Shown: positions 4,675 to 27,923 of the stretch, piece by piece
Layout: each line of letters opens with the position of its first letter
Numbering within the stretch: position 1 is the stretch's first letter
Assembly: GCA_020722365.1 (NCBI GenBank)
Contig: DYKY01000001.1
Coordinates: 15,357 to 79,356 of the forward strand
DNA length: 64,000 nucleotides
Source of the DNA: Thermoflexus sp.
GTDB lineage: Bacteria; Chloroflexota; Anaerolineae; B4-G1; SLSP01
Direction: 5' to 3'
The notes under the pieces: generated by a model
The model's input: the letters and a program-made list of their open reading frames with translations, nothing else
Database searches by the model: none
What the model was told of the DNA's origin: nothing
Position numbers and translations under genes: made by a program

Positions 4675-5727
<1,053 letters not shown>

Positions 5728-5825
5728 CCATCAATCCAGGCTTCCGGCGTCAGCACCGGCAGTAGATCGCGCAACTGCCCCCACCGCTGTCGGTCGCGGA
5801 TTGTGAATTTCCAGGCGAAAAACCC

Positions 5826-5854
5826 TTGACAAAGGGAAAAACCGGCTGTATAAT
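5826..5854 (+). promoter_or_regulatory. Consensus sigma70 promoter (TTGACA-17bp-TATAAT).
   Basis: Exact -35 TTGACA at 5826-5831 and exact -10 TATAAT at 5849-5854, separated by a 17-nt spacer. Confidence 0.7.
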
Positions 5855-5861
5855 CAATTAT

Positions 5862-5875
5862 AGAACATCTGTTCT
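5862..5875 (+). promoter_or_regulatory. Putative LexA operator (Cheo/Gram-positive-type SOS box) number 1.
   Basis: AGAACATCTGTTCT is a perfect GAAC-N4-GTTC palindrome overlapping the predicted +1 of the consensus promoter. Confidence 0.55.
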
Positions 5876-5923
5876 AATAATATCACACCACGCTTTGGCG
5901 TGTTCTTTTTTCGCTTTAGGATT

Positions 5924-5937
5924 AGAACATTTGTTCA
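5924..5937 (+). promoter_or_regulatory. Putative LexA operator (Cheo-type SOS box) number 2.
   Basis: AGAACATTTGTTCA, GAAC-N4-GTTC. A short hairpin plus T-tract (5886-5910) lies between the two boxes. Confidence 0.5.
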
Positions 5938-5947
5938 TAAATAATTA

Positions 5948-6023
5948 AGACTACAAAAGTCTCAGCCCGTACTTCAACGCAAGTATTTGCTTGAACAGGT
6001 GTCGCACAAGACTTTTGTAGTCT
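5948..6023 (+). repeat. 15-bp perfect inverted repeat (AGACTACAAAAGTCT ... AGACTTTTGTAGTCT) with a ~46-nt loop, in the 5'UTR of the FtsK-paralog operon.
   Basis: Read directly in the sequence. The loop contains a smaller hairpin CAAGtatttgCTTG. The RBS GAGGAG and the ATG at 6044 follow. Confidence 0.8.
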
Positions 6024-6043
6024 CAGTATTGTGAGGAGACCCT

Positions 6044-7171
6044 ATGTCACGTTCACTACGTCCTTATTTGGAATACCAGGCCGATCGGGTAGAAGCCGTG
6101 CTGGCCGCGCATCGTACACCGGGACGCGTCACGGGAGGTACAGTCGGGCCTCGGTCGATCCGCTTCTTCTTGAATCCCGCACCGCACATCCGCTTTGCGT
6201 CGATCAAGCGTTTGGCCGATGACCTGGCGCTGGCGATGCAGGTCCCCACCCTCAACGTCGACCGGGGCAAGGAAGGCGTGATTCTGGAATTCTCCAACCC
6301 CAATCCGCGCCCGGTGACGCTGCTCAATCTGTTACCTGAAGCCATGCCTATGCCGGTAGCTACAGCGCTGTTAGGTCTCACCGACGACGGCGCGCCCTTG
6401 CTCGCGCGGCTATCCGCGCCAGAGGTAGCACACATTCTCGTCTCCGGCACTACGGGGTCGGGCAAGTCGGTGCTGTTGCGGACCATAGCGGCGTCGCTGG
6501 CGCTCACCCACACGCCAAGTCTGCTGCAAATGCTGTGCATCGATCCAAAAGGTCGCGCGTTTCCGGCTTTTAACGGCATCCCCCATCTCACCCGTAAGCC
6601 GATTGTCGATGTAGCGGAGGCATTAGAGGCGCTGCGCTCGGTGGTACGCGTGATGGACTCCCGCGACCGGCGTGGCGAAGCGCCGATCGCCAGCCGCAAC
6701 GCTATCGTTTCGCACGATGAAGGGATACAAGGCACATCCATCCCACGCATCGTCATCTTCATCGACGAGCTGGCCGATTTAGTGATGCAGGGCGAAGCGC
6801 CGTTCACCGACACGTTGACACGCCTTGTCCAGCGTGGCAGACAGGCAGGCATCCACGTCATCGCGGCGACACAGCACCCCTCGTCCGCCATCCTCAGCAG
6901 CGTGATGCGGGCGAATTTTCCACTGCGGCTGGTAGGTCGTGTCGTCTCAGCGGATGATGCCAGAGTCGCATCGGGGAGAGCGGGGACAAACGCGCATCTT
7001 CTCAATGGACGCGGGGATTTTCTGGCAGTCAGTGGTGGGGAAAATCCGATTCGATTTCAAGTAGCCTATATCGATGAGAAGGAGCTTAGACAACAAATGG
7101 CAATGCTGAGCGGCACTGTGGCGCCCTATTCAGCACAGTTGCCGGTATTGGCCTATAGGAGTGCAGCATAA
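6044..7171 (+). CDS. Soluble FtsK/SpoIIIE-family DNA-translocase motor paralog (alpha/beta ATPase domains only).
   Basis: Walker A SGTTGSGKSV and Walker B IVIFIDELADL, collinear with the motor domain of the canonical FtsK at 16085-18496 (IDPK..GIPHL.., ATQ..S). Lacks the N-terminal membrane domain and the gamma winged-helix domain. Confidence 0.8.
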   Translation: MSRSLRPYLEYQADRVEAVLAAHRTPGRVTGGTVGPRSIRFFLNPAPHIRFASIKRLADDLALAMQVPTLNVDRGKEGVILEFSNPNPRPVTLLNLLPEAMPMPVATALLGLTDDGAPLLARLSAPEVAHILVSGTTGSGKSVLLRTIAASLALTHTPSLLQMLCIDPKGRAFPAFNGIPHLTRKPIVDVAEALEALRSVVRVMDSRDRRGEAPIASRNAIVSHDEGIQGTSIPRIVIFIDELADLVMQGEAPFTDTLTRLVQRGRQAGIHVIAATQHPSSAILSSVMRANFPLRLVGRVVSADDARVASGRAGTNAHLLNGRGDFLAVSGGENPIRFQVAYIDEKELRQQMAMLSGTVAPYSAQLPVLAYRSAA

Positions 7172-7556
7172 TATGGAAACGCGAGAACCTTTTGGCAAGC
7201 GGTTAGGACGCTTTGTGGCCTTGATCAGCATCGTCTTCACAGTAGCCTTGGTCGTCGTGGTCACACAACGGCTCAGCCAGGATTCGCTGGCATTGTTGAT
7301 CGGGCTGGCGTGCGGCGTGGGGGCAATGCTGCCGACGCTCCTGCTCGGCGTGGTGATCTGGCGGCGTGAAATGCAACAGCAACAGCAAGTATCCCGGATG
7401 CCAATGGCAACGCCGCCAGTGGTCATCGTGACGCCGCAGGGATTGCCAAATTACGGCGTGCAGCAGCCTGCTCTCAGCGATGGAGGCTTTACCTGGCCGT
7501 GGGCCGGCGTGCAGCAGCCGGCTCGGACATTCACGATTGTCGGCGATGAAGAGTAA
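7161..7556 (+). CDS. Small membrane protein with a poly-Gln tract (2 predicted TM helices).
   Basis: Hydrophobic segments FVALISIVFTVALVVVV and LLIGLACGVGAMLPTLLLGVVIW, followed by QQQQQ and a Pro-rich tail. Start and stop overlap the neighbouring genes (operonic). Confidence 0.5.
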   Translation: MQHNMETREPFGKRLGRFVALISIVFTVALVVVVTQRLSQDSLALLIGLACGVGAMLPTLLLGVVIWRREMQQQQQVSRMPMATPPVVIVTPQGLPNYGVQQPALSDGGFTWPWAGVQQPARTFTIVGDEE

Positions 7557-8460
7557 AACGATAAGCGAGGGCACGATGGGCGCACACTTCAGAAATCTGT
7601 ATGAGCGTTTGAAGACAATGCTGGCGCAGCGCGATACGTTTGCGAGCGATGGTGCGTTGCGCGCACTCTTCGCGGAGCCGCGCCTATGCGAATGGCAGGC
7701 AAATCTGCCCTATACCCACAGCCGCGAGCGGCGCGTCGTACAAACCATCCACTATCTGCACGGCCAGTATAACATCGATCACGAGAACGGTCTGGTGTTG
7801 CTACTCCAGGTGCTCAGTGAGCAGGCCGGCCTAGATGACGACTTCCAGTTGGCCATGAGTGATATGGCCGAGCGGGTGCAATATATGATTCACAAAGACA
7901 ACCGCGAACGACTCAACAAGGTGTTATCCGGGCTGGATTTTGACCCAACACTGCAACCGGAAGCACCCTTCGCCGGTCAAGTCATTGCCGGTACGGGCAA
8001 CGTCGTGATGACGTGCATCGACACGCTGAGGCCAGGGGAGGTCTACCGTCTCGGCGTGATCGGCAGCAGTATGGAACACGAAGGCATCTTCGAAGGCGAC
8101 GAGGTAGTGATGCGCGTCTTTTTCAATTCCGAGTGGCCTGGCGAAGGGGACATGATCGTGACCAAGTATCTGCCTTACGGCGCTGAACCGGAGTTTAGCG
8201 CGGATTTCATCGGGACGGACTTGCTGGGACCGACGCTGAAGGTCTTCCACCAGAAAGCCAACGGCGAGTTCCACCTGGGATGGCGCAAGGACAACGTCGC
8301 CTGGACATCCACAGTATGGAAGCGGCTCGCTGCACCAGGCAACGCGCAGATGATTGTGACACGCTACATCGCGCCCATCGGCAAGGTGATCGACGTCAAA
8401 AAGCGGCGCGTGTGGAATTTTGCAATCCGCACAGGTTTGTGGATTTTGGGAGGTGACTGA
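7546..8460 (+). CDS. Two-domain protein: unknown alpha-helical N-terminal domain plus a C-terminal S24 (LexA/UmuD-like) self-cleaving peptidase domain.
   Basis: GVIGSSMEHEGIFEGDEVV matches the catalytic-Ser motif (G-x-S-M ... GD) and MIVTKYL matches the catalytic-Lys motif (VTVKRL in LexA). A candidate Ala-Gly cleavage site sits in FAGQVIA|GTGNV at ~7987-7992. No recognisable winged HTH at the N-terminus. Confidence 0.65.
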   Translation: MKSKTISEGTMGAHFRNLYERLKTMLAQRDTFASDGALRALFAEPRLCEWQANLPYTHSRERRVVQTIHYLHGQYNIDHENGLVLLLQVLSEQAGLDDDFQLAMSDMAERVQYMIHKDNRERLNKVLSGLDFDPTLQPEAPFAGQVIAGTGNVVMTCIDTLRPGEVYRLGVIGSSMEHEGIFEGDEVVMRVFFNSEWPGEGDMIVTKYLPYGAEPEFSADFIGTDLLGPTLKVFHQKANGEFHLGWRKDNVAWTSTVWKRLAAPGNAQMIVTRYIAPIGKVIDVKKRRVWNFAIRTGLWILGGD

Positions 8461-8705
8461 TGCTATTCAATCTAGCAGCGCGCCGTGAACCGATCCGGCT
8501 CATCGCACGGAACCACAACTACTTTCCACAGCGGTTCATGTGGCGCGGGCAACAATACCGCGTGCATTCAGTCATCCGCGCGTGGACGGAGATGAAGCGG
8601 AAAGGGACCTTGTACTTCTTTCGCGTGCGTTGCCCGGAGGGCGTCTTCGATCTGTGCCAGGATTTGTCGCTCAATGCCTGGTATCTGGCACGGCAGGTAG
8701 AGTAG
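8460..8705 (+). CDS. Hypothetical small protein (81 aa).
   Basis: ATG overlaps the upstream stop (TGATG). No recognisable domain. Confidence 0.4.
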   Translation: MLFNLAARREPIRLIARNHNYFPQRFMWRGQQYRVHSVIRAWTEMKRKGTLYFFRVRCPEGVFDLCQDLSLNAWYLARQVE

Positions 8706-8762
8706 GAAGATGGATAGAGATGGGGAGAGAGATAGAGATAGAGGGCGGGATTGGAGGGAAAA

Positions 8763-9002
8763 ATGGACGTAGGATTGTTGTGGCACGATGGTGGTTCGGC
8801 AGATCTGGCGGGGACGTTGGCACAGGCAGCCAAGCGATATCGCGACCGTTTTGGAGACAAACCCAATGTCTGCTACGTGCACCCAACGCTGTTGCCCGAC
8901 GGCGACCGCAAGGTGAACGGCATTCTGGTACGTCCGTCCGCGCGGGTTTTGCGCCACCATTTCTGGCTCGGGCAGGAGAAGGCCGAGCAACCCACAGCGT
9001 AG
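8763..9002 (+). CDS. Hypothetical small protein (~79 aa).
   Basis: GGAGGG RBS precedes the ATG at 8763. Last gene of the same-strand cluster. Confidence 0.35.
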   Translation: MDVGLLWHDGGSADLAGTLAQAAKRYRDRFGDKPNVCYVHPTLLPDGDRKVNGILVRPSARVLRHHFWLGQEKAEQPTA

Positions 9003-9044
9003 CGCGGTTTCCATACCGCGCGCCCACGTTGATGTAGCGTGGCG

Positions 9045-10010
9045 CTATAGACTCGTCAGTTGTACAATCAGCAAATCGAGGGCGGCCTCGGCTTCCAGTA
9101 ACCCCCGCTTGATGGCGAGGTCACTATCCACAAGTAACTGATAAGCTGCGCGCAACTGCTCCGGTGTGAAATGCTGCGCCTGAGCGCGCAATTTTGAGGT
9201 GACAAACGGCTGCAACTTCAACCGGGCGGCAATATCTGTCTCGCCGGCCCGACGATCGTCCAACCAGCGCACCTGGATTAGCAGCCGGAACTGCCGTACG
9301 ATCATCCCGAAAATTCCCAGCGGGTGCTCCCCCACCTCCAATAGCCGGTGTAGATAGAGCGCCGCATTGCGCGGATCGCGTTGACCGATCGCGTCCACCA
9401 TAGAGAAGATTACGTCGGCGCTTTGAATATAAGGCGCCATAACCTTTACATCCTCGACGGTGATGGATTTGTTCTCCCCACAATACAGCATCAGCTTGCG
9501 GACTTCCTGATCCAGCAAGCGCAGATTCGGTCCGATATTCTGGGCTAACAAGGCAGCGGCCTGGAAATCGATGGCGCCCCGGTGCATTTTCGTCCGCTCG
9601 ACGATCCAGCGGGAAAGGTCTTTCGCGTTAGGGACGGCAAAAGCCTGGATGTTTGCGTTCAGTTTTTTGGCCTGCGTCAGGACGGCGTTCTTTGCAGCAA
9701 GCGCCTTACGCTCACTGAAGATCAGAATTGTAGTGGGCGGGAGGTCTGGCAAATATGCGGCGATTTCGTCGATCTCTTGGGCGGCCCGCCCCTTGGTCTG
9801 CGACAACACTTCGCGCGCGATAACAATGCGCACGTCGCCGAGAAAGGGGGTGGCGCCGCATGCCTGGCGCAGCGTGGCGGCTGTCACGGGGCCTGCCAGA
9901 ACCTCTGTATTGAGGTCACGCAAATCCGGCGTCAGACCTGCTTGTTGGACAATCGAAGCGAGGGCCTCTTCGCGCTGAAGATCATTCTCACCGTAGAGCA
10001 GGTGCAGCAT
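9045..10010 (-). CDS. holA: DNA polymerase III delta subunit.
   Basis: N-terminus MLHLLYGEND and the delta-subunit clamp-loader pattern. Start taken at the internal Met; the ORF track extends it upstream to 10166. Confidence 0.7.
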   Translation of the reverse strand: MLHLLYGENDLQREEALASIVQQAGLTPDLRDLNTEVLAGPVTAATLRQACGATPFLGDVRIVIAREVLSQTKGRAAQEIDEIAAYLPDLPPTTILIFSERKALAAKNAVLTQAKKLNANIQAFAVPNAKDLSRWIVERTKMHRGAIDFQAAALLAQNIGPNLRLLDQEVRKLMLYCGENKSITVEDVKVMAPYIQSADVIFSMVDAIGQRDPRNAALYLHRLLEVGEHPLGIFGMIVRQFRLLIQVRWLDDRRAGETDIAARLKLQPFVTSKLRAQAQHFTPEQLRAAYQLLVDSDLAIKRGLLEAEAALDLLIVQLTSL

Positions 10011-14421: not shown

Positions 14422-14644
14422 CACGTTTTCCTCCCTGATCCACAAGCCTATGGTCATAGGCCCTAATACAAAACATGAGCCGACCCCTTGAAGGTTCGGC
14501 TGTCGGGTCATTATAGCTAAGTCGATGAATTTGTCAAACCCCATCGTGCGAGAATGAAACACACCCAAATCAGATTCGGCAACTTGTCTTTTGGCCCTTT
14601 CGGTGTACAAAGCGTGTGATCTCATGGTTTTTACCCCTTGTTAT

Positions 14645-14658
14645 AGAATATATGTTCT
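14645..14658 (+). promoter_or_regulatory. Degenerate Cheo-type LexA box upstream of radA.
   Basis: AGAATATATGTTCT (GAAT-N4-GTTC, 1 mismatch to GAAC-N4-GTTC), 29 nt upstream of the radA ATG. Confidence 0.3.
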
Positions 14659-14686: not shown

Positions 14687-16069
14687 ATGGCGAAACGGGA
14701 AAGTCGCTGGGTCTGCCAGCAATGCAACTGGAGCTACGCGCGACATATGGGCAGGTGTCCCAACTGCGGCGCGTGGGATTCCCTGGTTGAAGTCCCACTG
14801 GAGACGGGGGATAGCGGTACAACAGCATCAGCGCCGCGCAGCGCGCAACGCCCGCAGCCGTTAAGCCAGGTCGATCTCGGCGCGGTGGACCGCATTCCGG
14901 TACTGATGAACGAGTTCTCTCGCGTGCTCGGCGGTGGGTTGGTTCCCGGCTCTATCGTGCTGATCGGCGGTGAACCGGGGATCGGCAAGTCGACGCTGCT
15001 GCTGCAAGTCGCTGCCGCGCTTGGCTCGACCGAGCATCCCGTGCTCTACGTCTCCGGGGAAGAATCCCCCCGGCAGATCAAAATGCGCGCTAAACGCCTG
15101 GGCATTGAGGGCGATCCGCTGTACCTGCTGTCGGAAACCGAGGCCGGCGCCATCCTCGCCCAGGCCGGCGCGATGCAACCCACACCGCAAGCGTTGGTCG
15201 TCGATTCCATCCAAACCGTACACAACGAGGATATGACGTCAGCGGCGGGCAGCGTGAGCCAGGTGCGCGAGTGCGCGGTCAGCTTTCAACGCTGGGCGAA
15301 GGAAAGCGGTGTGCCTGTCTTCGTGGTAGGTCACGTCACCAAACAAGGCTCGATTGCCGGGCCAAAGGTCTTGGAGCATATCGTCGACACGGTGTTGTAT
15401 CTGGAAGGCGACCCCTTCCACACCTACCGGCTGCTGCGCAGCGTGAAGAACCGCTTCGGCGCGACTTCCGAGGTGGGTGTGTTCGAGATGCAAGAGAAGG
15501 GCCTCGTCGAGGTCGCCAATCCTTCGGAAACGTTCCTGGCCGAGCGCATGGTGAACGTGCCGGGATCGACCATCGCCGTCACCATGGAAGGGACGCGTCC
15601 GCTCCTGGTCGAGATTCAGGCGTTGGCGAGCCACACCAGCTTCGGCAACCCGCGCCGCACCGTCAACGGCCTGGACTTCAACCGGCTGCTGCTCACCGTC
15701 GCCGTGCTCACCCGCCGGGTGGGGCTGCGGCTGGACGAGCAGGACATCTTCGCCAACGTCGTGGGTGGGTTGCAAATCGAGGAGCCGGCCGCCGACCTCG
15801 CCGTGGCGGTGGCGCTGGCTTCGAGTCTGCGCGACCAGCCCGTTCCGGCGGACATAGCGGTGGTCGGTGAAGTGGGACTTTCCGGCGAAGTGCGTTCGGT
15901 GAGCCAGTTGGAATCCCGGATGAGCGAGGCTGCGCGTCTGGGCTTCACCAAGATCGTCATCCCGCGAAGCATGCAGCGCAAGCAGTTGCGCCCGCCCGAC
16001 GGGTTAACCCTGATCCCGGTGCGCTCGGTGGGCGAAGCCATCGAAGCTGCGCTAGGGCCAAAACGATAA
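14687..16069 (+). CDS. radA: DNA repair protein RadA/Sms.
   Basis: N-terminal C4 zinc finger (CQQCNW..CPNCGAW), RecA-like P-loop GEPGIGKST, KNRFG motif and C-terminal Lon-like domain. Confidence 0.9.
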   Translation: MAKRESRWVCQQCNWSYARHMGRCPNCGAWDSLVEVPLETGDSGTTASAPRSAQRPQPLSQVDLGAVDRIPVLMNEFSRVLGGGLVPGSIVLIGGEPGIGKSTLLLQVAAALGSTEHPVLYVSGEESPRQIKMRAKRLGIEGDPLYLLSETEAGAILAQAGAMQPTPQALVVDSIQTVHNEDMTSAAGSVSQVRECAVSFQRWAKESGVPVFVVGHVTKQGSIAGPKVLEHIVDTVLYLEGDPFHTYRLLRSVKNRFGATSEVGVFEMQEKGLVEVANPSETFLAERMVNVPGSTIAVTMEGTRPLLVEIQALASHTSFGNPRRTVNGLDFNRLLLTVAVLTRRVGLRLDEQDIFANVVGGLQIEEPAADLAVAVALASSLRDQPVPADIAVVGEVGLSGEVRSVSQLESRMSEAARLGFTKIVIPRSMQRKQLRPPDGLTLIPVRSVGEAIEAALGPKR

Positions 16070-16084
16070 CGAGACATAGAGATT

Positions 16085-18496
16085 ATGACGAAAAGAAGCA
16101 CTTCTTCACGCTCAAACGGCCGCTCCACGTCACGCGGGCGCTCGTCATCGGGCAATCGGCGCACCACGCGCAAGAAACCGCGCGAATCGCTGTGGAATCG
16201 CCTGAGCGCCGAGCAAAAGCTGGACATTGTTGGCTGGATCCTGTTTTTCCTGGCCCTGCTCACAATCCTGAGCTTTATCTCGGCGCAGCAGGGCGCGCTG
16301 ACCGAATGGTGGATTTCGCTCCTGGCACAGACGTTCGGGTGGGGAATGTACGTCGTGCCGCTGTTCTTCGGCGGAGTAGGACTGTGGCTCATCCTGCGCC
16401 GCTTCGAGGATCGCCTTCCAAAAATCGATCCTGAACAGATCGTAGGCGTGATCGCCGGATTCTTTGTCGCGTTGATGACGCTGCATCTCATCACCAGTTT
16501 TGCGTGGCCGCAGATCAACTTCTACCGTCTGGGGGAAGGCGGCAGCGGCGGCGGATTGATCGGCGCGTTGATGCTGGATGTGAGCGTCAAGGCGCTCGGC
16601 AAAGTTGGCGCCACAATCTTCCTCATCCTGGTCTGGATGGTCATCGTGACGTTCATCGCCGGCATCTCGCCCGCCGACGCGGTCCGCCTGCTGAGCGAGC
16701 TCGCCGAGAGGCGGCGAACCACTGGACAGCAGAATATCCCGCCGTGGGATGTGACGCAACTGTCCCTGCCGCCTGACGCGATGACGCCGACAGGCCCCCC
16801 TGCCGGTCCGAAAATCCTCGGTGGCGGCGCCGAAGCGGAATCGTCGAAAGCAGCGCCAGGCCGCAAGAAGAAAGAGGATGAAATCCGCATTAACGTGGCA
16901 GCCCGTCCCACGAACGGCAACGGCGCTCTGGAATTCGAAGGGCCGACGCTGGTGGTAGGGGCGCAGGCGTGGCGCTTGCCGAGCGTTGTCGATGTGCTGG
17001 AAGAGGGCAGCGAGCAATACTACAGCGAGGACCTGATCCGCAAACAAGTCCGCGTCATCGAGAAGACGCTGGAAAGCCTGGGCGCGCCCGTGCGCGTGCG
17101 TGAAATTAACCAGGGGCCGGTGGTCACGCAGTTTGGCACGGAACCGCTCTTTGTCACGGCGCGTACCGGACGTACAACCAAGGTCAAAGTCAGCAAGATC
17201 ACCAGCCTGGCGGATGATCTGGCGCTGGCGCTTTCGGCACGCAGCATCCGCATCCAGGCCCCGATCCCCGGCAAAGGGCTGGTGGGCATTGAGGTGCCCA
17301 ATGAGGAGCCGGCTGTGGTCTCGTTGCGCGACATCATGGAATCAGAGGCTTTCGACAAGCTCAAGGGCCGTCTACGCCTGGGTCTGGGACAGGATGTCTC
17401 CGGGCAGGCGGTGGCGGCGGATCTGCGCGCGATGCCCCACATGCTCATCGCCGGCGCGACAGGCGCGGGCAAGTCGGTGTGCGTGAACTCCGTCATTGCG
17501 GCGCTGCTGTTGCAAAACACGCCGGACACGCTGCGGATGCTGATGGTCGATCCCAAACGGGTCGAACTGACGCAGTACAACGGCATTCCCCATCTATTGT
17601 CACCGGTGATCGTGGACGTAGAACGGGTCGTACCCGCGTTGAAGTGGGTGATGCGCGAGATGGACAGCCGTTACCGTCGCTTCGCACAAGTTGGCTCACG
17701 CAACATCGAGGACTTCAACCAACGCGTGAGCAAAACGACAGGCGAAGCCCCCATCCCCTACATCACCGTGCTGGTGGATGAGTTGGCCGACCTGATGCTC
17801 CAGTCACCGGAAGAGACAGAGCGCGTGCTGTGCCGCCTGGCGCAGATGGCGCGCGCTACGGGCATCCACCTCATCATCGCCACACAGCGCCCCAGCGTGG
17901 ACGTGGTGACGGGGCTGATCAAGGCCAACTTCCCCTCGCGGGTGGCCTTTGCCGTGGCCTCGTCGGTGGACTCGCGCGTGATCCTGGATATGCCGGGGGC
18001 GGAGCGGCTCTTGGGACGCGGCGATATGCTCTTCATGCCGCCGGACGCCAGCCAACCGCTGCGCCTGCAAGGGGCTTTTGTCTCCGACCACGAGCTGGAT
18101 CGCCTGATCAATTTTTGGCGCAAAGCCGTAGAGCCGGGCAAGTCACCGCGGCAAGTGGACTTCCCCAAACCGATGGCTGCCGCCTACACCGACGAGATCG
18201 CACCGGCCCAACCGGCGCTCTTCCCCGACTTCGAGGAAGAGACGAAACTTGCCGGCCAATTCGAGGATGAACTGCTGCCCACCGCCGTGGAGATTTTCCT
18301 GGCTGAAAACCGGGCGTCAGTCTCCCTGCTGCAACGCCGCATGCGCATTGGCTACACGCGCTCCGCGCGGCTGGTGGAGCAACTGACCGACATGGGGATC
18401 GTGATGCTGGAGACCGAGGGGCAGTTCCGCAAAATCAACCGGGCCGTGGCGGAGTCGCTGCTGCAATCGCTGTATCCGGGAGAGAACGAGACATAG
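16085..18496 (+). CDS. ftsK: DNA translocase FtsK (full length: N-terminal TM domain, Pro-rich linker, motor, gamma domain).
   Basis: 4 N-terminal TM helices, Walker A AGATGAGKSV, Walker B VLVDELADL and a gamma-domain-like C-terminus ..RASVSLLQRRMRIGYTRSARLVEQLTDMGIV. Confidence 0.9.
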   Translation: MTKRSTSSRSNGRSTSRGRSSSGNRRTTRKKPRESLWNRLSAEQKLDIVGWILFFLALLTILSFISAQQGALTEWWISLLAQTFGWGMYVVPLFFGGVGLWLILRRFEDRLPKIDPEQIVGVIAGFFVALMTLHLITSFAWPQINFYRLGEGGSGGGLIGALMLDVSVKALGKVGATIFLILVWMVIVTFIAGISPADAVRLLSELAERRRTTGQQNIPPWDVTQLSLPPDAMTPTGPPAGPKILGGGAEAESSKAAPGRKKKEDEIRINVAARPTNGNGALEFEGPTLVVGAQAWRLPSVVDVLEEGSEQYYSEDLIRKQVRVIEKTLESLGAPVRVREINQGPVVTQFGTEPLFVTARTGRTTKVKVSKITSLADDLALALSARSIRIQAPIPGKGLVGIEVPNEEPAVVSLRDIMESEAFDKLKGRLRLGLGQDVSGQAVAADLRAMPHMLIAGATGAGKSVCVNSVIAALLLQNTPDTLRMLMVDPKRVELTQYNGIPHLLSPVIVDVERVVPALKWVMREMDSRYRRFAQVGSRNIEDFNQRVSKTTGEAPIPYITVLVDELADLMLQSPEETERVLCRLAQMARATGIHLIIATQRPSVDVVTGLIKANFPSRVAFAVASSVDSRVILDMPGAERLLGRGDMLFMPPDASQPLRLQGAFVSDHELDRLINFWRKAVEPGKSPRQVDFPKPMAAAYTDEIAPAQPALFPDFEEETKLAGQFEDELLPTAVEIFLAENRASVSLLQRRMRIGYTRSARLVEQLTDMGIVMLETEGQFRKINRAVAESLLQSLYPGENET

Positions 18497-26657: not shown

Positions 26658-27923
26658 TCAATCAAAAATCGGGACTTCGACCCTAAACAGTTCGACCGAT
26701 GCTTCCGTGCTCAACTGGAATTCACGCAGACAAGCAGGAATCAGGATAGATTGACCTTGCGGCAAAATAATCCTGCCATCTTCGGAACTAGTGTTCCAAC
26801 CCACAACAACTTTGCCTTTAGTCACCAAAAACAACTTGAGCTTATTTTCAGTCGTCTCTTGTCGCGTCGTTGACGAACTGAGTGTTAGTCTACTGACACG
26901 AAACTCAGAGACAGGCGTTTGATATATTTTTTCTTCTACATCCGGATCATTTCCCAAGACCGAAAGGGAAGCAGGAGTATAATCGATGACGTTGATCAGA
27001 TTTTCAGGATCCGTAAATTTATCCGTCAAACCAACACGCACAACATTGTCAGAGTTAGCCATACATTCAACAATATTGCCTTTTATGTACGCATGCGGAG
27101 TCCCTGCATCGGTGAAGAGTCCTTGCCCCTCCGTAAGGTGAACCAAATTCAACAAGAACATCGCGAAGAGTCCCACATCCGGCCCGGTATACTTTGCCCG
27201 AAGACTTAGAAAGAGAATCTCAATCTCTTCCAAGGAAGAAGATTTGCTCAGCCGTTCAGCTAACTGCTCAATAGCACGCACTAATTCTTTCTGGTAGTCA
27301 ATGGAATTCTTGATCAGCGTCGAGAACAAAGTCTGGATGAGTGTCTGCTGCTTTCGGGAGCCTAAAGGCGCCGGACTAAGCACGCTGGCGCACACGCTTT
27401 TTCCGATAAAATTAGCGATCTCCGGGTAACGGCTTAGGGTTTCTTGAATATCAGCAAAGGGCTTGATCCCCATCAAGGCCGTTAACGAATCAAGTGCGAT
27501 GGCTAGCTCGGGTTTGTGATTCGCATCGGGATAGTGTATAGGATCATGCAGATGCAGAGCGTTTGCCTGTGCCTTGTTGGGATGCACTTGTATGGATAAG
27601 GATTCACCCGCAGATAGTACCTTAAATAAATAGGGTAGTTTATTTGAAAACCTGTTCGCGATCTTGCTTCCCAGAATTTGTACCGGGTATGCATTGATCC
27701 ATTGATCCAAAGGGATTCCCATTTCCCCAACCACGATGTTGGATGGGGCTTTGGGATGAGCGCCTATCCACAATTCAGCATACGGTAATTCGGGTTCCGG
27801 TTGAAAACCTAGTAGATTCGGGATAAAGGCCTGGTCCCCACGGGTACCCCAGGCATAGTGTTGAATCCTGTTTTTCAATAAGTATGGGCGCGCTTCAACA
27901 TAGGGGAGCGTATCGAGAATCAT
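26658..27923 (-). CDS. manA: Mannose-6-phosphate isomerase, class I.
   Basis: YAELWIGAHP and LPYLFKVLSAGESLSIQVHP motifs. GC content is markedly lower (~43-45%) than flanking DNA. Confidence 0.8.
   Translation of the reverse strand: MILDTLPYVEARPYLLKNRIQHYAWGTRGDQAFIPNLLGFQPEPELPYAELWIGAHPKAPSNIVVGEMGIPLDQWINAYPVQILGSKIANRFSNKLPYLFKVLSAGESLSIQVHPNKAQANALHLHDPIHYPDANHKPELAIALDSLTALMGIKPFADIQETLSRYPEIANFIGKSVCASVLSPAPLGSRKQQTLIQTLFSTLIKNSIDYQKELVRAIEQLAERLSKSSSLEEIEILFLSLRAKYTGPDVGLFAMFLLNLVHLTEGQGLFTDAGTPHAYIKGNIVECMANSDNVVRVGLTDKFTDPENLINVIDYTPASLSVLGNDPDVEEKIYQTPVSEFRVSRLTLSSSTTRQETTENKLKLFLVTKGKVVVGWNTSSEDGRIILPQGQSILIPACLREFQLSTEASVELFRVEVPIFD

Follow-up and report, generated by a model that had tools for sequence, protein, structure and literature searches.

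Filaments of RecA on single-stranded DNA are typically sensed by LexA-type autopeptidases, and regulated cell death and innate immunity rely on Death-fold domains as their standard adaptors. Both occur in a single protein, here called bDLD1-S24, encoded in a 64,000-nucleotide stretch of DNA (the window) from Thermoflexus sp., a member of the Anaerolineae (Chloroflexota; assembly GCA_020722365.1, contig DYKY01000001.1). The gene stands third in an operon of five genes, whose promoter carries two LexA boxes, and its product joins an N-terminal Death-like domain to a C-terminal domain of the LexA type.

The closest described systems are LexA and UmuD. LexA of Escherichia coli, LexA of Thermotoga maritima (PDB 3k2z) and a clade of Anaerolineae proteins of ~249 amino acids share with bDLD1-S24 the S24 fold, the Ala-Gly site, the Ser/Lys dyad and the succession of N-terminal domain, linker with the Ala-Gly bond and catalytic domain. 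In bDLD1-S24, however, bDLD1 stands in place of the winged helix-turn-helix (HTH), the cleavage loop is 8-12 residues shorter than theirs, and an insert (residues 241-257) and a tail have been gained; moreover, the bDLD1-S24 gene is a target of LexA boxes, whereas LexA is their binder. UmuD is likewise an S24 protein of a LexA-boxed SOS operon that does not bind DNA, and its autoproteolysis, stimulated by activated RecA, removes an N-terminal part, as is predicted for bDLD1-S24. However, UmuD loses an arm of 24 residues, whereas bDLD1-S24 would lose a folded domain of 120 residues, and the structural (Foldseek) match to UmuD' is weaker than that to LexA. UmuD also partners the adjacent Y-family polymerase UmuC, whereas the bDLD1-S24 operon has no polymerase gene in or near it, none of the Y family (IMS/umuC) being found within +/-10 kb of the window gene or at the other loci. 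By analogy, bDLD1-S24 appears functionally closest to UmuD, with a catalytic domain that is LexA-like.

The second line of comparison leads to the conflict systems of bacteria. In vWA-MoxR-iSTAND/VMAP conflict systems, bDLD1/EAD3 serves as a homotypic adaptor, and trypsin-like peptidases are among its fusion partners there (Kaur et al. 2020, 2021; PMC7159879, PMC8195603); these bDLD1/EAD3-peptidase effectors resemble bDLD1-S24 in the fusion of PF20689 to a peptidase and in their filamentous, multicellular lineage. In the known fusions the peptidase is trypsin-like, a caspase or of the CHAT type, and a nearby gene for an iSTAND or other nucleoside triphosphatase (NTPase) carries bDLD1 a second time, whereas bDLD1-S24 carries a LexA-type autopeptidase, lacks a bDLD1 in cis and belongs to a vertically inherited SOS operon. 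Modest structural similarity extends to the animal CARD-caspases and to PDB entry 9frr, which we take to be the CARD-protease of gasdermin defence systems, but these are of another protease class and are activated by induced proximity, as opposed to the self-cleavage at an internal Ala-Gly bond that is predicted for bDLD1-S24. Although both domains are known, their fusion, its SOS-operon context and the exchange of a LexA head for an adaptor were not found in the literature searched: the papers that define bDLD1 (Kaur et al.; PMC7159879, PMC8195603) mention neither S24 nor LexA, and a combined full-text search for a fusion of Death-like and LexA/S24 domains found nothing relevant.

A LexA-type autopeptidase domain joined to a Death-like domain

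The bDLD1-S24 gene occupies 7576..8460 of the forward strand and encodes 294 amino acids, with all residue numbers counted from the ATG at 7576. An earlier note, made from the letters of this DNA without database searches, had opened the reading frame at 7546. The start is most likely at 7576 instead, because the equivalent codon (MGAHF...) is the start in 51 of 53 homologue clusters, a GAGG ribosome-binding site lies 6 nt upstream, and a start at 7546 would create an 11-nt overlap with the preceding gene, whose stop ends at 7556. The reading frame itself is real and conserved, its 53 homologue clusters all belonging to metagenome-assembled genomes (MAGs) of Anaerolineae/Chloroflexota, and the protein contains every motif that the note had quoted.

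The C-terminal half (residues ~130-276; 7963..8403, forward strand) is a LexA-type S24 autopeptidase domain, as the note had proposed for a LexA/UmuD catalytic domain. Matches at the level of the family settle this identity, the single protein being weak evidence when taken alone. The Pfam family Peptidase_S24 (PF00717) is matched by 13 of 36 homologues at E <= 0.01, with a best E of 7.5e-6, and the family profile matches Thermotoga LexA 3k2z (E 0.0047) over a region that spans the cleavage site and the Ser motif; a phmmer search of PDB sequences with the single bDLD1-S24 protein returned no match. The AlphaFold model of the protein has a mean predicted local distance difference test score of 78, and in a Foldseek search with it the top 19 PDB matches are LexA chains, followed by UmuD', at a probability of 1.00, with target-normalised template-modelling scores of 0.66-0.72 against LexA entries that hold the C-terminal domain only.

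Conservation was read from an alignment of the 36 bDLD1-S24 homologues, which diverge down to 45% identity, and correspondence with LexA from an alignment that took in E. coli LexA and three Anaerolineae LexA-like proteins. Ala138-Gly139 (codons 7987..7992, forward strand), the predicted self-cleavage site in GQVIA-GTG, aligns with A84-G85 of E. coli LexA and with the T. maritima LexA site and is invariant in all 36 homologues; this is the bond in FAGQVIA-GTG that had been singled out earlier as a candidate for scission. The flanks, G-x-V-x-A-G-x-G, are invariant as well and match the self-cleavage site of LexA position by position. Ser165 (8068-8070), within G163-S-S165-M166, aligns with G117-M-S119-M of E. 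coli LexA and GESM of T. maritima LexA and is again invariant (36/36), so that the note was right to match this GSSM with the serine motif. The catalytic lysine had been sought in MIVTKYL, equated with VTVKRL, which proves to be one strand too early: the residue that aligns with K156 of E. coli LexA, on the strand VTVK156RL, is Lys222 (8239-8241) in GPTLKVF, invariant in 36 of 36 and in agreement with the strand order of the model, and K197 of IVTKYL belongs to the strand before it, the counterpart of LexA VVVARI. The G-x-S-M and T-L-K motifs around Ser165 and Lys222 are conserved without exception in the same homologues. The Ala-Gly bond lies 27 residues from Ser165, as compared to 35 residues in E. 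coli LexA and 39 in P0051 and the other closest LexA-like relatives, and the domain carries an extra 17-residue insert of low model confidence (241-257) together with a C-terminal tail. An invariant site and an invariant dyad suggest that bDLD1-S24 probably cleaves itself.

The N-terminal domain (residues ~1-120; 7576..7935, forward strand) is bDLD1/EAD3, a homotypic adaptor of six helices. The earlier description of a helical N-terminal region without a winged HTH stands, except that the domain spans ~120 rather than 150 residues, and what was then called an unknown domain can now be named. PF20689 is matched by 26 of the 36 family members (best E 3.6e-10), and a hidden Markov model (HMM) of residues 1-126, searched against 1.84 billion cluster representatives, retrieved 1400 of them at E <= 0.001 and 901 at E <= 1e-10. 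PF20689 is present in every one of the 87 proteins scanned among the top matches, with a best value of 9.7e-25. The proteins retrieved are 100 to 1561 amino acids long and bear the domain at the N terminus, at the C terminus, internally or in tandem; partner domains in the 87 scanned matches include NACHT, nSTAND1/3, AAA_16, caspase, CHAT, Roc-COR-LRR and EAD7, and Peptidase_S24 is absent among the 25 most frequent families listed for them. A caspase protein with four bDLD1 repeats was compared as well, and the domain shows 26-40% identity to these repeats. A standard HTH, the outcome that the note had asked to be checked, is not what these six helices form: they have no wing, the LexA DNA-binding domain PF01726 has no match in the window protein or the 36 members of the family, and the window protein scores 12 bits against TIGR00498 (lexA), for which the cut-off is 110.95.

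The operon and its LexA boxes

At every locus with a bDLD1-S24 gene, five co-directional genes stand in fixed order with tight spacing or overlap: those for an FtsK-like ATPase, a protein with two transmembrane (TM) helices, bDLD1-S24, a DUF6504 protein and a protein of 79 amino acids. The genes flanking the operon differ among loci, although a holA-DUF6391-sortase block is often found downstream. In a single scan of 185,579 species genomes the bDLD1-S24 gene was found in 10 species, all represented by MAGs of Anaerolineae/Chloroflexota. It is the fastest-evolving member of the operon; at the most divergent locus bDLD1-S24 retains 45% identity, as compared to 71% for the FtsK-like ATPase, 67% for the DUF6504 protein, 72% for the 79-amino-acid protein and 61% for holA.

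The operon begins downstream of a sigma-70 promoter, TTGACA-17-TATAAT (5826..5854, forward strand), that matches the consensus at 12 of 12 positions. Promoters and boxes were compared at 11 loci, in the region upstream of the FtsK-like gene (316 bp in the window), where the intergenic DNA cannot otherwise be aligned; all 11 loci keep both hexamers with hardly a change. Box 1 (SOS/Cheo-type), AGAACATCTGTTCT, lies at 5862..5875, 7 nt downstream of the -10 hexamer, is a perfect GAAC-N4-GTTC and is invariant at the 11 loci as TATAGAAC-N4-GTTCTA. Box 2, AGAACATTTGTTCA, at 5924..5937, is also perfect and is kept in 10 of 11 loci. According to the passage of PMC4951493 that cites Fernandez de Henestrosa 2002, GAAC-N4-GTTC is the sequence that LexA recognises in Firmicutes and Actinobacteria, and variants of it are reported from Chloroflexi. 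Perfect sites number four in the window, namely the two boxes of the operon and those at 26785 and 36823, of which the former falls within a coding sequence and is taken as chance; in the loci that were fetched, perfect boxes occur almost only at the position of the operon promoter. Because the operon has two canonical LexA boxes, a separate DNA-binding LexA is required. The boxes and the promoter are plain to see, and from them the operon is inferred to be LexA-regulated, with expression that would be inducible by damage.

Between the boxes, at 5889..5912 on the forward strand, a GC-rich hairpin with a T-run, CACGCTTTGGCGTG TTCTTTTTTC, is present in 10 of 11 loci, and the fold z-score of 5860-5945 is -4.6. 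The element is terminator- or attenuator-like and might act as such within the leader, or it may be where a very short transcript, induced in the SOS response, has its 3' end; an Rfam scan of 5600-9200 returned nothing credible. The 5' untranslated region (5946-6026) contains a pair of 19-nt elements, AAGACTACAAAAGTCTCAG and AAGACTTTTGTAGTCTCAG, whose cores are mutually reverse-complementary; they are specific to the window, with different short repeats at other loci. Elsewhere in the window, an SOS-like box, TAGAATATATGTTCTA, at 14643-14658, has one mismatch to GAAC-N4-GTTC and the same extended palindrome and lies ~30 nt upstream of a radA/sms-like gene (14687-16069), which suggests that radA belongs to the same LexA regulon.

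The first gene of the operon (6044..7171, forward strand) encodes a soluble ATPase of 375 amino acids with matches in Pfam (FtsK_SpoIIIE, 1e-34; FtsK_alpha, 1.5e-9) and NCBIfam. Its alpha and beta motor domains contain GTTGSGKS as Walker A and FIDELAD as Walker B; it lacks an N-terminal TM domain and a gamma domain, and is 71-92% identical across loci. That it might be the housekeeping FtsK was ruled out by a canonical full-length FtsK at 16085-18496, directly downstream of radA, which has 803 amino acids, N-terminal TM segments, a motor and a C-terminal gamma-like winged HTH; since this canonical protein is also encoded in the window, the ATPase of gene 1 is best regarded as an SOS-specific paralogue. 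Gene 2 (7173..7556, forward strand) encodes a protein of 127 amino acids with two TM helices, predicted by reading the sequence, and a conserved C-terminal tail, RTFTIVGxEE; scans of Pfam, NCBIfam, PADLOC and PHROGs gave no family match for it.

Downstream of bDLD1-S24, gene 4 (8460..8705, forward strand) encodes a DUF6504 protein of 81 amino acids (Pfam DUF6504, 7.6e-7), and gene 5 (8763..9002, forward strand) encodes the conserved 79-amino-acid protein, which is without a family assignment and is always last in the cassette. The stop codon of gene 3 and the start codon of the DUF6504 gene overlap, as TGATG or ATGA, in 11 of 12 loci (TGATG in the window), and in the same proportion of loci the last codons of gene 3 (LGG) are the GGAGG Shine-Dalgarno sequence of the DUF6504 gene (8446-8462 in the window), an arrangement that would couple the two genes translationally. 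The conserved C-terminal 'ILGG' was considered as a ubiquitin-like or second cleavage motif and rejected, because its codons form this ribosome-binding site. A possible link between DUF6504 and ImuB-type mutasome proteins was dropped, the homologues found being all small stand-alone proteins of Chloroflexi, and no paper that mentions DUF6504 was found. An origin from a phage or a known defence system is likewise unsupported: PADLOC and PHROGs gave no match for the bDLD1-S24, TM, DUF6504 or 79-amino-acid proteins, and a scan of viral contigs returned no relative of bDLD1-S24.

Relatives of the domain and of the operon

Outside the bDLD1-S24 family, the nearest S24 relatives are ~90 clusters of Anaerolineae LexA-like repressors of ~249 amino acids (the P0051-P0053 clade). 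These share with bDLD1-S24 the motifs SMEHEGIFEGD, GDMIVTKY and LGWRKDN and an insert between the two Lys-bearing strands, which shows that the S24 domain descends from a local LexA lineage. In a small group of filamentous Chloroflexi, the DNA-binding head of a self-cleaving protein of the LexA type has given way to a bDLD1 adaptor. In the genome that encodes P0051 (L025, 6920-6990), a perfect box, TAGAACCTATGTTCTA, lies upstream of a 60-codon reading frame just downstream of the lexA-like gene, and no clear box was seen at that locus upstream of the lexA-like gene itself.

Three relatives of the operon that lack bDLD1-S24 were reached through DUF6504 homologues. Two of them, L023 and L024, consist of the FtsK-like, TM, DUF6504 and small-protein genes in the same holA synteny, and L023 carries LexA boxes around its -10 hexamer. 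The third, the more distant L022, is headed by a lexA gene (PF01726 and PF00717), followed by a gene for a 266-amino-acid protein without a family match and then by the FtsK-like, TM, DUF6504 and small-protein genes, and here too two LexA boxes flank the -10 hexamer. Since L023 and L024 lack bDLD1-S24 and L022 is headed by lexA, the four-gene core is interpreted as an old LexA-regulated module; one subclade gained the bDLD1-S24 gene by insertion downstream of the TM gene and upstream of the DUF6504 gene. The lexA gene of L022 (2968-3642) reads RGEASGDALLSEGD at the G-x-S-M position and has no obvious Ala-Gly site, and its product may be non-cleavable or atypically cleaved.

A proposed damage-responsive switch and its alternatives

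Taken as a whole, the locus is best explained, with a probability of roughly 0.55, if bDLD1-S24 is a LexA-derived, SOS-induced, self-cleaving switch that carries a Death-like adaptor. Gene 3 was added to an older, four-gene, LexA-repressed operon of the Anaerolineae, with which it would be co-transcribed and translationally coupled. DNA damage, or any other source of RecA filaments on single-stranded DNA, would inactivate canonical LexA and de-repress the operon, and bDLD1-S24 would cut itself between A138 and G139, stimulated by activated RecA as are LexA and UmuD, a step to which the invariant site and dyad point. The cut would part the Death-like adaptor from a presumably dimeric S24 module and, speculatively, alter its oligomeric state or its availability, so that an interaction might be switched on or off, either with a bDLD1 partner encoded elsewhere (caspase or STAND) or with the FtsK-like and membrane proteins of the operon. 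The earlier note had left a choice between a UmuD-like, damage-activated protein with a functional N-terminal domain and a divergent LexA; the former fits best and, now that the N-terminal domain is bDLD1, the latter does not. The architecture suggests, without proving, a direct link from the DNA-damage alarm to Death-domain signalling. It can be ventured, as a tentative extension, that the freed bDLD1 (or the lifting of a brake imposed by the S24 dimer) nucleates or blocks homotypic assembly with bDLD1 caspase or STAND effectors elsewhere, and so would couple DNA damage or phage-induced RecA activation to Death-fold cell suicide or immunity in filamentous, multicellular Anaerolineae.

Several observations weigh against such a switch. 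The window protein taken singly stays below the Pfam cut-offs for both of its domains, at E 0.033 and 14.3 bits for Peptidase_S24 (cut-off 23.3) and E 0.016 and 15.9 bits for PF20689 (cut-off 25); for the former, which together with the Ser/Lys dyad had been named beforehand as the point on which the S24 assignment should turn, the dyad is present on alignment and the family match appears among the homologues. The hairpin of the cleavage loop is shortened, which may alter its reach to the active site, and confidence in the model is low at residues 141-150 and 241-257. No second copy of bDLD1 was found in the 64-kb window or at 21 related loci. Finally, the gene is inherited vertically with holA synteny and is not sporadic in the manner of a typical conflict system.

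The same observations lend some weight to other explanations. The shortened cleavage loop and the low Pfam score of the window protein could mean that the S24 domain is an inactive remnant, whose sole role would be to dimerise the Death-like domain, without any proteolysis; this is improbable, given that no homologue, down to 45% identity, departs from Ala-Gly, Ser165, Lys222 or the motifs G-x-S-M and T-L-K, a constancy that would be unexpected without catalytic constraint. The shortened loop might also disfavour cleavage in cis, and bDLD1-S24 could instead be a trans-acting peptidase effector, recruited by its bDLD1 to a signalling complex, that cuts the TM protein, the DUF6504 protein or an unlinked protein rather than mainly itself. 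For both UmuD and LexA cleavage in trans is possible, be it inside a dimer or from one dimer to another; the dyad of bDLD1-S24 is invariant, and effector peptidases and NTPases are the usual fusion partners of bDLD1, with a precedent in the bDLD1-trypsin and bDLD1-caspase proteins of vWA-MoxR/iSTAND systems. This explanation is nevertheless unlikely, because a purely trans-acting enzyme has no need of an invariant LexA-type Ala-Gly site and flanks, S24 peptidases are not known to have dedicated heterologous substrates, and neither a STAND, vWA or MoxR core nor a second bDLD1 was found near the bDLD1-S24 gene.

The lack of a bDLD1 partner in cis, together with vertical inheritance, strict operon linkage and translational coupling, would equally suit a regulator internal to the operon, acting in an SOS checkpoint of division or of the chromosome with no outside Death-domain partner: the intact protein would hold the FtsK-like motor, the TM protein (a candidate SOS division inhibitor) or both through its bDLD1, and cleavage or decay would reset the system. 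In E. coli, ftsK is induced in the SOS response, and the inhibitors of division in that response are usually small membrane proteins. It is possible but doubtful that the protein works in this way, because the four-gene core functions without bDLD1-S24 in sister lineages, which makes the gene an add-on, the known pairing of bDLD1 domains is homotypic and is not with proteins of the FtsK type, and none of the other four operon proteins shows any likeness to bDLD1. Least credible of all is that bDLD1-S24 is a highly divergent LexA, an SOS repressor that binds DNA through its helical N-terminal domain. The note had seen no canonical lexA in the window, and no other S24 or lexA reading frame was found there, a result that covers these 64 kb and not the rest of the genome; a single scan of GTDB with two peptide patterns found LexA-like relatives only in assemblies without bDLD1-S24, and the operon has LexA boxes, as do autoregulated lexA genes. 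Against this, the N-terminal domain is a bona fide bDLD1 with neither HTH nor wing, the TIGR00498 score is far below its cut-off, and the same boxes precede an operon that lacks bDLD1-S24 (L023) and one headed by a canonical winged-HTH lexA (L022); recognition of GAAC-N4-GTTC is, in the passage on these sites cited above, a property of the winged HTH of LexA.

Unexpected as it is, the bDLD1-S24 architecture is real; it is restricted to a small number of uncultivated species. The four-gene core that surrounds it represents a previously unremarked, conserved, LexA-boxed operon of the Anaerolineae and would give DUF6504 its first functional context, that of the SOS response. If the predicted self-cleavage is true, bDLD1-S24 would be a simple and testable case of a DNA-damage signal that enters Death-domain signalling in a multicellular bacterium, and the exchange of domains would show that a transcription factor, LexA, is convertible into a post-translational signalling switch. 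If the switch is indeed gated by the SOS response, it would constitute a bacterial counterpart, built from recycled LexA, of the DNA-damage-induced Death-domain signalling of animals.

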